Assembly: GCA_046299515.1 (NCBI GenBank) | Contig: JBKBID010000003.1 | Coordinates: 42,345-106,344 of the forward strand | DNA length: 64,000 nucleotides | DNA from: Thermoflexales bacterium | GTDB taxonomy: Bacteria; Chloroflexota; Anaerolineae; J036; Brachytrichaceae | Direction of reading: 5' to 3' | Part shown: positions 5,301 through 26,879 of the stretch, piece after piece | Layout: every line of letters begins with the position of its first letter | Numbering within the stretch: position 1 is the stretch's first letter | Notes under the pieces: generated by a model | The model's database searches: none | Told to the model about the DNA's origin: nothing | The model's input: the letters and a program-made list of their open reading frames with translations, nothing else | Translations under genes and position numbers: made by a program

Positions 5301-8224
5301 TCATCCAGGCTCATCTCGCCAAAGCGAGGGGGGAGCAACGCGACGCGGTCATCCTTCGTCAGATGCGCTGCCGGCACATCGCCGCGATTGAATGTGTAAA
5401 CGCGATGATCGGCGGTGAGATTCACTTCGTAGCCGGAGCGGGTGCGCAGGCGATAGACCGGTTTGAAGCCGGTGCGAAAGGCCGGCCCGACGCGATGCAG
5501 TTGCCCATCGCCCCCCAACACGTCGAACGGCTGGTCGAGCAGCGTATCAATACGGCGCAAGCCTTGCGCTGTGGCGACCAGCGTGTCGCCGGTGACGCAC
5601 GGGTTGCTGCCGCGAATCTCGCCATCGGCCGGGCAGGTGTGCCACTCGTTGATGGTGGTGTGATATTGGATGCCCGGGTCGGCGCAGTGCCACGCCGCTT
5701 CGGCGATCTTGCGCCACAGCTCGCGCGCCTTCACCATGCGCTTCGGCTTGGGCGCGCGGCCCTCTTTCTTGGCCTTCTCGATCTCCGTGCGCCAAATCAG
5801 CCCCCATTCCTTGTCCTCGATCACCGCCTGCATGAATTCGTTGGTGACGCGCACGCTGTTGTTGCTGTTCTGGCCGCTGACGGTCGCGTAGGCTTCGCTG
5901 TTCCAGTCGGTGTCGTATTCCGGGAAGTGGATGCTGGTGTACCCCTGCTGCGCAAACTGGATGACGCGCTCGATGTAATTTTGCGGGATCAGGACGCGGC
6001 GCGCCTCGGCAATCGCCTGGGCCAGCTTGGCGTTCTGCTTGCGGTCGAAGCGCGTCGCCGGGTCGGGCCATTCGTGGCAGGCCCGCATGATGGCGTTCAG
6101 GTGCTTGTTGTTGAGCTTGCTGCCGGTCACCAGCGACGCCACTTTCTGCTCTTCGATCACCTTCCAGTCAATGAAAGCTTCGATGTCGGGGTGATCCACG
6201 TCCAGGATGACCATCTTGGCCGCGCGGCGCGTCGTGCCGCCGCTCTTGATCGCGCCGGCGGCGCGGTCGCCGATCTTGAGGAAGCTCATCAAGCCGGACG
6301 ACTTGCCGCCCCCGCTCAGCGGCTCATTCTCGGCGCGCAGCTTGGAGAAGTTGCTGCCGGTGCCGCTGCCGTATTTGAAGATGCGCGCCTCGCGCACCCA
6401 CAGATCCATGATGCCGCCCTCGTTCACCAGATCATCCTCGATGGACTGGATGAAACAGTTGTGCACAAGGACGTTGTTGCACAGATACTGACCGGACTCG
6501 GTTTGGATGTCGTAGACCGGCAACACGCCGACCGGCTCGATGCGGATGATCGTCTCATCGCGCAGCGCCGGCAGCCCCTTGCCGGCGAATTCTGACGAAC
6601 ATGCCCGGTCGAGCCGCGCCGCCTTATCCGAAGACACAAATCCGATCGCCGCGCGAAAGGCCATGCGCGACTCGGCGTAGCCGATGGAGACAAACCACGG
6701 CGTCCTGCGATTGAGCCGCTTCTCCACGCCGGCTTGAACGCGGGCATAGATGCCCAGGTTGAGCAGCAGCGCCTGCACGTCTCTGGCCAACCTGGCCGAC
6801 GCAGTATTGAAGACGACATCGGCAGCGCGTGACTCGCGTTGTCGCGCAAACTCGGGTCGCAATAAGCCGTTCGGCGCGGGAGGCGCTGCGTCCAGGGCCA
6901 AAGCGGGCGCAAGAGCCAAGCGCAACGCACGGCGCCGCAGTCGCACTGCGCCGTTGGTTTGAAAGAGCGAGCGCAAATAGGCGCACTGGGCCTGACGGCC
7001 GGCGCGCCGAACTGCGGCCGGGACGCCGCGCTCACGTTCTTCGCGCAGCAGTTCGTATTTCTCGACGAATGGACGCAATCTTTCGCCGTAGAGCCGGATG
7101 CGCCGAATCGTCAACCTCGGGTCGCCGGACTCGACCGGGCGCACGTGGCAATGCGCGCCCGGGAACACCGTCTCGACCAACTGCATGACGTATGCGTGCT
7201 CTTCGTCGTTAACGGTCATCAATTCGACCGTCAAGCTGCGGTTCGCGCCCTCGTCGTAGTGCCCGACGAATCCATCGCCCTGAATCCAGCCGGCCAGCGC
7301 GCACTCGGCGATGTCACGCTCCTCTGAAGTTCGCCCGACAGCCGTAGTTGTCACGAGGCGCATGCGCTGGCCCGGCGAAAGCTGATCCACCCTCAACCAG
7401 CGGCCCGCGCCGCGCCGCTCATCGGCCGCCCAGACCAGATGATCGCCGGTCGCTTCGACGCAGACGCCATTCTTCAACACGATGCGATACACGAGCTTCT
7501 GGCCGTTAGATTTGACGGCGACTACGCGCGTCTTCCCCGCGCCGCCCGCAGACCCGTCGAAGACCTCTAGGCCGATCAGGTTCTGCGTGACAATCTCGCC
7601 GATGGCCAGCGGGCCGGATGGCGTAGAGATGAGCGCGTCGAACGGCTGGCATGCGTGCGGTTGCGGGTGCGTGTAAGCGTCCTCGGAGCGCTTCACCTTG
7701 CCGGTTTGCGGGTCCACGTAATAGTGCCCTTGCGATGGGCCGGTGATGCCATACGCCCAGTTCAGGCCGGTGTTAAACCATTGCGGGCTGTTCGGCGCGG
7801 CCATCTGCTTGGCCAGCATGTAGCACAGCTCATCATAGAAAGCGCGGGCGTCGTCTTCGGTGTCGAAGTAATTGTGCTTCCAGCCCCAATAGGTCCAGCA
7901 TCCGGCCAGGCGGTTGAACACCTGTTTGCTATCGCGTTCGCCGTGGTCGAGCGTCGCGCCCTCGGCCGGCGCGCTGCGTTGCAGCCAACCGGGCACGCCG
8001 CGCTCACGCACGCGCACGGTGGCGCTGGGCACGCCCGCCTTCCGAAAGTACTTTTGCGCCAGGATGTCGGTGGCCACCTGCGAAAAGTTCTCCGGCACAT
8101 CAATATCGTGCATCTCGAACACCGCCGAGCCGTCGGGATTGCGAATGACAGAACTACGCTTAACGAACCGGATGTCTGCGTATGGGCTCTCGCCGGCTCG
8201 GGTGAATCGTCGTGTAATCTTCAT
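2324..8224 (-). CDS. nrdJ: Class II adenosylcobalamin-dependent ribonucleotide reductase precursor (1966 aa) with two inteins; mature protein about 1204 aa
   Basis: [67 protein letters not shown] motifs; TSCPD-like C-domain and terminal Cys ribbon. Confidence 0.97.
4508..5599 (-). mobile_element. Intein 2 of NrdJ (364 aa) with LAGLIDADG homing endonuclease, inserted at SNP/CSE
   Basis: Begins [10 protein letters not shown], block B TADH, endonuclease blocks FIGLLVGDG and LRGLFTADG, ends VYDL...GIVVHN followed by Cys. Confidence 0.95.
6458..7651 (-). mobile_element. Intein 1 of NrdJ (398 aa) with LAGLIDADG-type domain, inserted at PQPHA/CFI
   Basis: Begins [10 protein letters not shown], block B TGDH, blocks LAGWIQGDG and LRSLFQTNG, ends VYDIQT...VLVHN followed by Cys. 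Confidence 0.95.
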
Positions 8225-8785: not shown

Positions 8786-8814
8786 ATTTTAAGGATTCAT
8801 TTGCTCAAAGTCAA
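8786..8814 (-). promoter_or_regulatory. sigma70-like promoter of nrdR-nrdJ
   Basis: TTGACT (8809-8814), 17 bp, TAAAAT (8786-8791) on the minus strand, upstream of the NrdR boxes. Confidence 0.75.
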
Positions 8815-8938: not shown

Positions 8939-10093
8939 CTATCGCCGGCGCAGGAAAGAAGGAAGCTCCAGGTTATCGGGATCGAACTGAGAAGCGCGGG
9001 CCAGCGAAGGCTCGGCCTCGCTGCGCGATGCGTCTGTGTTGAGCGAGGACGACGCATACCTGGCCGCGGCTGTCCGCATTGCTGCGCTGCTCGAGCGGAT
9101 CATCCGGTACGGCGCATTGCCCTGATGGTCGAAGCCGGTGGCGATCACCGTGATGCGCACTTGATCTTTCATATTTTCGTCCACAACCGCGCCAAAGATC
9201 ACATTGCAGTCGGGGTGCGCTGCCGACTTGATGATCATGGCTGCCTCGTTCACCTCAAACAGGCTGAGATCCGGGCCGCCGGTGATGTTGAACAGAATGC
9301 CGCGCGCGCCGTCAATGGTTACATCCAACAGGTTGGACGTAATCGCTTGCTCGGCCGCCGCGCGCGCCCGCCCCTCGCCGCTGGCCGTGCCCACCGCCAT
9401 GAGCGCGGCGCCGCCCTCGGACATGATAGTGCGCACGTCCGCAAAGTCGAGGTTGATCAGCCCTGGGACGGTGATCACCTCACTGATGCCCTGGATGCCC
9501 TGACGCAACACATCATCGGCCGTGCGGAAGGCCTGTTGAAGGGTGGCCTTCTGGCCGACGATGTCCAGCAAGCGGTCGTTGGGGATTACGATCAACGTGT
9601 CCACGTGTTCTTTGAGCCGCTCGATGCCGGCCTCAGCCGTGCGCATGCGCGGCGTCCCCTCAAACGAGAAGGGCTTGGTCACCACGCCGATGGTGAGCGC
9701 GTTCAGCTCTTTGGCGATGCGCGCGATGACGGGCGCGGCGCCGGTGCCCGTGCCGCCGCCCATGCCGCATGTGATGAAGACCATGTCGGCGCCCTTGAGC
9801 AAGCTGTAAATCTCATCGGCTGACTCCTCCGCGGCTTTCTCGCCAATTTCGGCGTTGCTCCCCGCGCCTAGCCCGCGCGTCACCTTCTCGCCGATGCGCA
9901 CGCGAATCGGCGCATGGCTGAGCATCAGCGCTTGCTGGTCGGTGTTGACGGCGATGAACTCAATGCCGGCGAGGCCCTCGGCGATCATCCGATTGACCGC
10001 ATTTTGGCCGCCGCCGCCGACGCCGACGACTTTGATTTGAGCAGGTGACTCAGCACGCATGCCCGTCAAATACTCTTCTGGTTGCATGTTCAT
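8939..10093 (-). CDS. ftsZ: Cell division protein FtsZ
   Basis: [19 protein letters not shown] tubulin signature, NLDFAD, C-terminal [10 protein letters not shown]; start placed after GGAGGA SD. Confidence 0.98.
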
Positions 10094-10142
10094 CGGAATG
10101 CTTCCTCCATCGCTGCTGCGGATATCCCCGCTCACTCACAAG

Positions 10143-10194
10143 TAGTTCACAGATTCTATGCTGCTTATCCACAGTGTCAAGCGGTTTATCCACA
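10143..10194 (-). promoter_or_regulatory. ftsZ-proximal sigma70-like promoter bracketed by DnaA boxes
   Basis: TTGACA (10175-10180), 16 bp, TAGAAT (10153-10158); perfect TTATCCACA at 10165-10173 and 10186-10194; degenerate box at 10143-10151. Confidence 0.85.
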
Positions 10195-10321
10195 GCTTTT
10201 TCCCAAAATCGAGAGTTTTAAGCTAGGGAACGTCCGGATAACCCAGCGTACGCGCGCGACGTTCGCAGGCAGACGAATCCGGACACTCCACGCAACGCGG
10301 TCAAGATGACCACCCTTCAGT

Positions 10322-11551
10322 TCAATCCGGCAACAAATTCCTCAACCATCCTGGCAAGTCCAGGCGAGGGCTGAAGCGTCGGCGTTTGCTAGGCTTCGCA
10401 ACGACGCCCTGCAACCCCCAGTGCAGCATTCCGACCGCAGTCGAGAAAGCCGGGGACTGCAGAGCGTCCACCAAGCCATACAAATTCATCGGGCGCGTCA
10501 AGCGAACCGGTCGTCCCGTCGTCTCGCGCGCCGACTCCCTCAAGCCTGGCAATAGCGAACCACCTCCTGTGATCACGAGTCCGGCCGGCAACAGGCCGTC
10601 ATAACCGCTGCGTTTGATCTCCTGCTCAATCAAGCTGAACAGCTCGTCAGCGCGGGCGCGCAGAATCTCCGCCGCCTCGCGCCTGGAGACGCGCACCAGC
10701 GGCTCATCACCAAACCCCACGATGTCGCAAACCTGATCGCCCGGCACATCAGGCGGATGGGCGTGCCCATAGTGCACTTTCAGGTGCTCGGCTGCGTCCA
10801 TCGGCAGTCGCAGCACCTGCGCCAGGTCGCCGGTGAAGTGCGACCCGCCTACCTCCAGCACTTTGGTATGCCATGCCGATCCGTCAATGAACATAGCGAT
10901 GCCCGTAGTGCCGCCGCCGATATCCACCAATACCGCGCCCATCTCGCGTTCGGTCGGTGTGAGCACGGCCTCGGCCGAAGCCAGCGGCGAGAGCACGAAC
11001 TCGCTCACGTCCACGCCGGCCATGTGCGCGCACTTGAGCAGGTTCTGCATCGCCGTCGTCGCGCAGGTGATGATGTGGGCCTGCGCTTCAAGCCGGAAGC
11101 CCAGCATACCGACCGGGTTGCGCACGCCATCCTGATCGTCCACTCGGAAGTGCCGCGGGATCACGTGCAGGATTTCGCGGTTGTTCGGCACGGCGATGGC
11201 CTGCGCCGATTCCAGGCAACGATTGATGTCGTCGAACGACACGCCCTGGTCGCCTCGGCCGATGGCGACCGCGCCCTGGCTGTTCTGCGAAGCGATATGG
11301 TTGCCGCTGATGGACATGAGCACGTGCGACGCCCTCACCCCCGAAGAGGCTTGCGCGCCGGCCAACGCCTCCTTCATGCACGCCACTGCGTCGCTTACGT
11401 TGATGATTTGACTGCGCCGGATGCCGCGGGCGACCGCCACACCCACGCCGATGATGGTGAAGCCGGCCTCGTTGTCGGCGGCCTCGCCCACCAGCGCCAC
11501 GACCTTCGTGCTGCCGATGTCCAAAACGGTGATCGTCTTCGGTTCTGCCAT
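10322..11551 (-). CDS. ftsA: Cell division protein FtsA
   Basis: LDIGSTKV, VDIGGGTT, GLVITGGG actin-like motifs; between ftsQ and ftsZ. Confidence 0.97.
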   Translation of the reverse strand: MAEPKTITVLDIGSTKVVALVGEAADNEAGFTIIGVGVAVARGIRRSQIINVSDAVACMKEALAGAQASSGVRASHVLMSISGNHIASQNSQGAVAIGRGDQGVSFDDINRCLESAQAIAVPNNREILHVIPRHFRVDDQDGVRNPVGMLGFRLEAQAHIITCATTAMQNLLKCAHMAGVDVSEFVLSPLASAEAVLTPTEREMGAVLVDIGGGTTGIAMFIDGSAWHTKVLEVGGSHFTGDLAQVLRLPMDAAEHLKVHYGHAHPPDVPGDQVCDIVGFGDEPLVRVSRREAAEILRARADELFSLIEQEIKRSGYDGLLPAGLVITGGGSLLPGLRESARETTGRPVRLTRPMNLYGLVDALQSPAFSTAVGMLHWGLQGVVAKPSKRRRFSPRLDLPGWLRNLLPD

Positions 11552-26227: not shown

Positions 26228-26656
26228 TCAAATTCCCAGACTGGCCCACGTCTCTTTCTGAGACGCATGCGCGCGCACCTCCTCAAGCGCACGCTGCCAC
26301 TCGCGCGGATTCCAGACCTCGATGAACTTGCCGACGCCGACGACGACGGCCTCGTTCGTGATCTCGGCGTATTCGCGCAACGGCTGCGGAATGACGACGC
26401 GGTTTTGCTTGTCGGGCACGGCGTCGTGCGCGTTGCTGTAGAGCATGCGCCGCAGCGTCGCCGCCTCTCGGCCCATCACCGGCAACGCGCTCACGCGCTC
26501 GAACAAAAGTTTGAACTCGTCGAGTGGATAGATCAGCAGACACTTGTCTGTTCCGGTCGTCATCACCACCCCATCGGCCAGGCGCGCGCGGAACTTGGCC
26601 GGCAGCGTCAGGCGGCTCTTCTCGTCCAGGGAATGCGTGAATTCACCGAGAAACAT
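26228..26656 (-). CDS. mraZ: Division/cell wall cluster repressor MraZ
   Basis: MFLGEF.HSLDEKSRL.LP, DKQNRVVIP, VGVG..IEVW. Confidence 0.97.
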   Translation of the reverse strand: MFLGEFTHSLDEKSRLTLPAKFRARLADGVVMTTGTDKCLLIYPLDEFKLLFERVSALPVMGREAATLRRMLYSNAHDAVPDKQNRVVIPQPLREYAEITNEAVVVGVGKFIEVWNPREWQRALEEVRAHASQKETWASLGI

Positions 26657-26700
26657 CCAAACTCTTCCACTCTATTCCATATTAACCCACTTTTTCCCAC
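26656..26700 (-). promoter_or_regulatory. MraZ operator array: five pentamers at exact 10-bp period
   Basis: Minus strand GTGGG-aaaaa-GTGGG-ttaat-ATGGA-ataga-GTGGA-agagt-TTGGA, the last running into the ATG. Confidence 0.85.
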
Positions 26701-26710
26701 TAACGCCCCT

Positions 26711-26774
26711 ATGATACTCGCAAATGGACATATCGCAACCACTTATCCACAGGCTGGGGATAAATCGTGGACAA
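26711..26774 (-). promoter_or_regulatory. mraZ/dcw promoter with upstream DnaA boxes
   Basis: TTGCGA (26733-26738), 16 bp, TATCAT (26711-26716); perfect TTATCCACA at 26743-26751, 1-mismatch box at 26755-26763, 2-mismatch box at 26766-26774. Confidence 0.75.
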
Positions 26775-26879
26775 ATTTGGATACGCGCGGACTCGGCAGC
26801 GCTCCGGCATCGAAAAGAGAGAGGCCTCAACCAACTGGTTGAAGCCTCTCTGCGCGAAATCACACCGGCGCCGGAGCGC

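Follow-up and report, generated by a model that had tools for sequence, protein, structure and literature searches.

We consider it probable that ftsZ of this Thermoflexales bacterium is transcribed from a dedicated sigma-70-type promoter with a built-in, phased array of same-orientation DnaA boxes, and that DnaA acts there as an operator-bound regulator, most likely a repressor. The window (the whole stretch of 64,000 nucleotides that was analyzed; window positions are used throughout) carries ftsA and ftsZ on the minus strand, separated by a gap of 228 nt, with the following features.

8939-10093, minus strand: ftsZ coding sequence, 384 aa (Pfam Tubulin, 1.2e-50; FtsZ_C, 5.6e-35)
10094-10146, minus strand: predicted 5′ untranslated region, 53 nt, with a Shine-Dalgarno sequence GGAGGA at 10108-10103
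10132-10140, minus strand: weak box 4, TGTGAGTGA, 11 bp past box 3, about +7 to +15; added in the present analysis
10143-10151, minus strand: weak box 3, TGTGAACTA, a three-mismatch match that spans the predicted start (about -5 to +4)
10153-10158, minus strand: ftsZ -10 hexamer TAGAAT, 6 nt after box 2
10165-10173, minus strand: DnaA box 2, perfect TGTGGATAA, within the 16-nt spacer and 1 nt past the -35 hexamer, about -27 to -19
10175-10180, minus strand: ftsZ -35 hexamer TTGACA (consensus), from a sigma-70-type promoter scan
10186-10194, minus strand: DnaA box 1, perfect TGTGGATAA (plus strand: TTATCCACA), 5 nt upstream of the -35 hexamer, about -48 to -40
10195-10222, minus strand: A/T-rich stretch TTAAAACTCTCGATTTTGGGAAAAAGC, directly upstream of box 1
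10322-11551, minus strand: ftsA coding sequence, 409 aa (Pfam FtsA, SHS2_FTSA), the neighbor upstream of ftsZ

Read along the minus strand, the gap has the order ...TTAAAACTCTCGATTTTGGGAAAAAGC TGTGGATAA ACCGC TTGACA C TGTGGATAA GCAGCA TAGAAT C TGTGAACTA CT TGTGAGTGA GCGG...GGAGGAAGCATTCCG ATG, and a second, independent gene caller likewise began ftsZ at this ATG. Transcription is predicted to begin near 10146, if +1 is taken to lie 7 nt beyond the -10 hexamer. The initial annotation had described TTGACA-16-TAGAAT in this gap as a near-consensus promoter with one perfect DnaA box in its spacer (10173-10165), a second perfect box 5 bp upstream of the -35 hexamer (10194-10186) and a degenerate third over the expected start (TGTGAACTA, 10151-10143), at a spacing of 21-22 bp. 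Every one of these elements lies where it had been placed. The promoter agrees with the consensus at 11 of 12 positions and is the best sigma-70-type match between positions 8000 and 13000, and the head-to-tail distances measure 21 bp from box 1 to box 2 and 22 bp from box 2 to box 3. The A/T-rich stretch upstream of box 1 is possibly UP-element-like, or else an extended box flank; it is rich in A and T, but its sequence is not conserved between genera. Reading the sequence after box 2 for a DnaA-trio or unwinding-element motif yielded a single TAG only.

The surroundings of the promoter offer two further observations. An inverted repeat, GTCCGGAT...ATCCGGAC (10232-10284, minus strand), lies downstream of the ftsA stop codon and is recognizable in most close same-genus genomes (L004-L009, L011); it is possibly a processing or termination signal for ftsA. 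A terminator hairpin at this site gained no support, since the predicted fold is no better than that of shuffled sequences (z = -1.08) and is not accompanied by a T tract. On the other side of ftsZ, across a gap of 222 nt, lies nrdR with a promoter match of its own (TTGACT-17-TAAAAT, 8786-8814, minus strand), and this repressor of dNTP synthesis therefore sits directly behind the DnaA-boxed ftsZ gene.

Chance is excluded as the source of the box arrangement at ftsZ. Allowing up to two mismatches, the two-box pattern has one match in the window versus none in 100 shuffled sequences. The assembly as a whole (2.97 Mb, 64% GC, 202 contigs) holds 13 perfect 9-mer boxes, where about six are expected from base composition. 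Two of these 13 form the ftsZ pair, 21 bp apart, and no other two lie close together; the same is true in a complete genome of the same genus (G009, 4.67 Mb), in which the ftsZ pair is again the sole close pair among 17 perfect boxes. By our own reading of the ORF maps, eight of the 13 are intergenic or lie within about 50 nt of a start codon. Single perfect boxes at C20:8437, C117:1183 and C16:25496 fall outside genes or at the very start of a gene. Just downstream are genes that resemble proC (with an mreB-like gene diverging from it), a glutamate dehydrogenase gene and one for a thioredoxin-domain protein. A pair of a different kind, ATATCCACA and TTATCCACA at a spacing of 12 bp (G000 C1:158131-158151), precedes a gene for an apparently LysM/PA14-like exported protein. 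The identities of the genes beside these C1, C20, C117 and C16 boxes come from our own reading of their translations.

The arrangement is also widely conserved within the family. Loci for an ftsZ-anchored set were picked without reference to the motif: 40 relatives were searched for FtsZ, and the DNA upstream of each match was then scanned. Same-orientation boxes are present at 20 of the 24 family ftsZ loci obtained in this way, 21-22 bp apart or, in one genus, 11 bp apart, and they occur in all ten same-genus genomes with an ftsZ match. In the same set, 20 family genomes share TTGAC and a spacer of 16 nt, the -10 hexamer reads TA(G/A/C)AAT across the family promoters, and box 2 has an identical register in all of them. 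Anchored on the -35 hexamer, the promoters align as an ungapped block of box 1, N5, TTGAC, N3, GTGGATAA, N6, TAnAAT, C and TGTG(A/G)AC, bordered by flanks that have diverged.

A search with the composite pattern TTGACNNNGTGGATN8TANNAT leads to the same place. Exactly one match per genome is found in 29 of 50 family species genomes, which span 8 of 11 genera and include 22 of the 33 high-quality genomes, compared with 0 for a reversed control pattern. The matches always lie directly upstream of ftsZ: an FtsZ N-terminus follows in 27 of the 29, and the remaining two belong to a genus whose ftsZ had been located beforehand. Box 1 reads TGTGGA(T/C)AA in 28 of 30 family promoters even though it is outside the search pattern. 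The initial annotation had made its reading depend on the conservation of the boxes in relatives, and conserved they are, at 20 of 24 family loci and, by pattern, in 29 of 50 species.

Conservation is concentrated in the promoter and its boxes. Among genomes of the genus, the core that runs from box 1 through box 4 averages 89% pairwise identity, compared with 60% in the remainder of the gap (upstream) and 73% in the leader. Mean information per position is 0.84 bit in box 3 and 0.64 bit in box 4, versus 0.24-0.36 bit in the flanks. TGTG(A/G)AC is kept in box 3 within the genus, and in genus g8 both weak sites come nearer to the consensus, with box 3 reading TGTGGACTT and box 4 reading TGTGGATCA or TGTGGATTC. 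Genus g9 has a variant layout, in which two perfect boxes 11 bp apart stand upstream of the -35 hexamer and the spacer box has decayed. Four sampled family genomes (G012, G015, G017 and G018) are without boxes, and at least one of these, G018, retains a promoter, TTGACT-17-TACAAT. Because some members of the family have lost the boxes, the DnaA-box layer is dispensable.

Beyond the family, the two-box arrangement is absent at ftsZ in all 16 other families of the class that were sampled, six of which were judged by scanning the loci and ten by 21-bp pairs located on contigs other than the ftsZ contig. The layout is likewise absent from 80 outgroup ftsZ loci (Anaerolineales, other Chloroflexota, Bacillota and Actinomycetota), taken from FtsZ relatives at up to 67% identity. 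By its best FtsZ hits, the family belongs among Anaerolineae-type Chloroflexota. The sole box pair among these outgroup loci, in one Limnocylindria MAG (L063), has no -35 hexamer between its boxes.

A second site of the division and cell-wall (dcw) cluster carries a perfect box at a promoter.

26743-26751, minus strand: perfect DnaA box of the mraZ promoter, oriented like the ftsZ boxes and separated by 4 nt from the -35 hexamer TTGCGA downstream

This box is perfectly kept in the 11 searched same-genus genomes with an mraZ match, and also in genus g3. Within the promoter region (26656-26775, minus strand) an inverted near-box, TTATCCCCA, lies just upstream of the perfect box. GTGGG repeats follow the mraZ -10 hexamer, and we take these to be the MraZ operator.

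These arrangements suggest how DnaA might act on ftsZ. The two high-affinity consensus boxes, separated by two helical turns, would keep DnaA on the promoter, from which the protein, probably in its ATP form, would spread by cooperative head-to-tail extension onto the weak boxes over the start (about -5 to +15). Occupancy of the spacer and the start site would then bar RNA polymerase from a near-consensus promoter. Transcription of ftsZ would fall when free or active DnaA is high, as before initiation or under replication stress or arrest (the latter in line with what has been proposed for ftsL of B. subtilis), and would rise once DnaA has been titrated or inactivated after initiation. Consensus DnaA boxes are tightly bound by both nucleotide forms of DnaA, and it is for this reason that regulation probably acts on the occupation of boxes 3 and 4. 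If the perfect boxes were always occupied, repression would be constitutive and would not follow the cell cycle, unless the weak boxes served as the switch. The poor agreement of boxes 3 and 4 with the consensus counts against this explanation. Since the register of the boxes with both hexamers is conserved, a function in transcription seems more plausible than mere titration, and retention of the layout in most of the family suggests that replication probably throttles division-gene transcription directly.

Firing at about 10146, binding by DnaA and repression are all three features that we infer from the sequence. The sign of regulation in particular is not readable from sequence, but repression is more likely on several grounds. 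The -35 and -10 hexamers are near consensus (11 of 12) and invariant, so that an activator would have little effect. The spacer is taken up by one perfect box and the start site lies under weak boxes 3 and 4, and repressors usually have their operator in the spacer or over +1. The layout moreover resembles those of E. coli dnaA and nrdAB. The state of the hexamers and the placement of the boxes argue as well against the possibility that DnaA binds yet activates ftsZ, or acts both ways, with box 1 recruiting or stabilizing RNA polymerase and only high DnaA-ATP being repressive. We regard this as unlikely, although it has some evidence in its favor. Box 1 is centered near -44, and at mraZ, where the -35 hexamer (TTGCGA) is weaker, the box lies 4 nt upstream of it, in a position comparable to that of upstream activator sites. 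Furthermore, ftsZ of Caulobacter is activated by DnaA through two boxes (PMC3193534, PMC8203912), and nrdAB is under concentration-dependent dual control (PMC8203912).

We also advance a more ambitious proposal, tentatively and as a possibility rather than as the expected case. DnaA could be the direct gatekeeper of the whole division and cell-wall cluster in this family, with origin-type modules co-opted at its first gene (mraZ) and its last (ftsZ), and a DnaA-ATP oligomer, nucleated on the consensus boxes, could block divisome synthesis until initiation consumes or inactivates DnaA.

The bacterium has a DnaA that appears suited to these sites. One full-length DnaA is encoded (C18:14426-15802); it matches DnaA of B. 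subtilis (8BTG) with E = 6.5e-124, and its domain IV aligns to the E. coli chain 1J1V, from a co-crystal with a DnaA box. The segments RPRQ, LPEIG and GGRDHTT(I/V)LH, which in 1J1V hold the base-contacting residues, are intact. By its sequence the protein is canonical and should be able to read the box consensus. The region upstream of dnaA (C18:14289-14361) contains a promoter match, TTGTGT-17-TAGAAT, and the presumed leader has a single one-mismatch box, TTGTCCACA, in the opposite orientation, with no box array. No match to the ParB N-terminal domain (PF02195) was found in the 93.6%-complete assembly.

Box pairs with the geometry seen at ftsZ are common elsewhere in the class. The head-to-tail pattern TGTGGAYAA-N11-13-TGTGGAT is present in 143 of 301 class genomes, versus five for a reversed control, and the boxes lie 20-22 bp apart, often in chains of at least three. 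These pairs adjoin dnaA in seven of 30 fetched loci (L183-L212), whereas none of the 30, all from other families, is at ftsZ or mraZ. In other families of the class AAAAC often precedes the boxes of 21-bp-spaced pairs. In this class, then, the two-turn box pair looks like an origin-type DnaA module, and the ftsZ core promoter of this family appears to hold a copy of its geometry.

The origin itself is most likely elsewhere on the chromosome. Contig C40 has a cluster of seven NNNTCCACA words packed into 170 bp (G000 C40:8700-8880). It is flanked by two divergent genes, which from their sequence look to us like genes for a Ppx/CHAD-like and a translin-like protein. The cores of these boxes are conserved in the genus and their flanks vary. 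GC skew was read from the complete relative G009, the 25-kb contig C40 being uninformative by itself, and the counterpart of the cluster in this relative lies at C1:3162985-3163538 (L233). Coarse sampling found negative skew between about 1.2 and 2.8 Mb and mostly positive skew over the arc that begins at about 3.3 Mb and passes through the numbering start to 0.5 Mb; in a contiguous 400 kb around the switch (2.96-3.36 Mb), the cumulative minimum falls at 3.15-3.16 Mb, at the box cluster. The C40-type cluster is therefore likely to be the oriC of the genus; it is not linked to dnaA, and ftsZ lies about 420 kb away. Two other locations for the origin were rejected. Only one one-mismatch box is found upstream of dnaA. 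At ftsZ, which is at 3.5835 Mb in G009, 20-kb windows on either side (3.495 and 3.728 Mb) are both skew-positive and the cumulative minimum lies at the other cluster, from which it follows that the ftsZ boxes are not part of the origin.

These observations also bear on whether DnaA is the protein that reads the boxes. Some other lineage-specific transcription factor could recognize the same TGTGGATAA word, but this is very unlikely given that the 9-mer is the exact DnaA consensus, that the same core builds a conserved box cluster at a local GC-skew minimum, that the same word forms 21-bp arrays adjoining dnaA across the class, and that the recognition segments of DnaA are unchanged. Least credible of all is that the pair is a locus for buffering or inactivating DnaA, or a piece of the origin, whose overlap with the ftsZ promoter is incidental. 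Loci such as datA and DARS are box clusters that alter how much DnaA is available or which nucleotide it carries; they usually include an IHF or Fis site and act independently of any promoter. Two very high-affinity boxes about 420 kb from the likely oriC, a distance comparable to that of datA in E. coli, and the 21-bp spacing of the origin-type module of the class would fit such a role, but the strong boxes are only two, their register with the -35 and -10 hexamers is nucleotide-exact in 29 species, which a titration site would not need, and the positive skew on either side of ftsZ in G009, with the local cumulative minimum at 3.15-3.16 Mb in the other cluster, argues against an origin.

DnaA acting as an operator-bound regulator of ftsZ, most likely a repressor, would bear on how bacteria tie division to replication. 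If the gatekeeper proposal is true, a single protein would provide a checkpoint from replication to division, a kind of checkpoint whose importance, according to a 2021 review, has so far been shown in no bacterium (PMC8203912). The family offers an unusually clean case, with a fixed register in 8 of 11 genera by exact pattern, a ninth with a variant layout, and a matching mraZ box. Because the boxes and hexamers match the E. coli consensus, both the sign of regulation and its dependence on nucleotide state are testable in E. coli or in vitro without culturing the organism. By-products of the analysis are the likely location of oriC in the genus, not linked to dnaA, and the recognition of the 21-bp head-to-tail pair as a recurrent module of the class. 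The initial annotation knew of no description of such control in Chloroflexota, and our literature searches likewise yielded no paper on DnaA control of ftsZ in this phylum.

The closest counterpart within the phylum is the Limnocylindria locus mentioned above (L063; MAG DASVEH010000262, Candidatus Limnocylindria), where TGTGGATAA-N13-TGTGGAAAA occurs about 120-145 nt before the matched FtsZ segment. A TAGAAT hexamer lies about 35 nt downstream of these boxes, and the box-like words GTGGACAA and GTCCAC are nearby. As in the present case, two same-orientation boxes (22 bp apart in L063) stand upstream of ftsZ. However, those of L063 are well upstream of TAGAAT, with no TTGACA between them, whereas ours are embedded in the core promoter. 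The L063 layout is more suggestive of an activator site upstream of a promoter than of an operator built into one. The two arrangements may have arisen independently, because the 16 other sampled families of the class are without a two-box arrangement at ftsZ.

DnaA has been connected to division genes in other phyla. Under replication stress, DnaA of B. subtilis binds at the promoter of ftsL (Goranov et al. 2005, in PMC8203912). There, as here, DnaA at the promoter of a division gene is the proposed link to replication status, although the target in our case is ftsZ and the layout of the boxes is different. E. coli has boxes within ftsQA, upstream of ftsZ, that are irrelevant to ftsZ transcription (Masters 1989; Garrido 1993; Smith et al. 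1996, in PMC8203912), a precedent that counts against our reading. These share with our boxes a place upstream of ftsZ in the dcw cluster and a proposed role in coupling replication to division; unlike them, the boxes described here are not intragenic and away from core promoters, but lie in a core promoter and are conserved in the family.

A mechanistic parallel is provided by E. coli dnaA p2 and nrdAB, where high-affinity boxes together with weak sites that DnaA-ATP fills cooperatively occlude RNA polymerase (Speck et al. 1999, Olliver et al. 2010, in PMC8203912). Strong 9-mer boxes are combined with weaker sites in both species, and in E. coli the repression depends on the nucleotide state of DnaA. 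The target genes differ, however, and in E. coli the weak sites are of the AGATCT type and no box is phased by two turns inside the spacer of a consensus promoter.

A further comparison is offered by Caulobacter crescentus, whose ftsZ is activated by DnaA, reportedly as DnaA-ADP (Hottes et al. 2005, Fernandez-Fernandez et al. 2011, PMC3193534). This is the sole experimentally supported link between DnaA and ftsZ, and as a case of activation it counts against repression here (PMC8203912). The two systems have in common the target gene, the presence of two boxes in the promoter region and a tie between the initiator and expression of the divisome. They differ in phylum, and in our case two consensus boxes interleave with consensus -35 and -10 hexamers, an arrangement that points to repression rather than activation. 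That DnaA serves as a transcription factor, even at ftsZ of Caulobacter, is already known; what is distinctive here is the interleaving of consensus boxes with a consensus promoter at a phasing of two helical turns.
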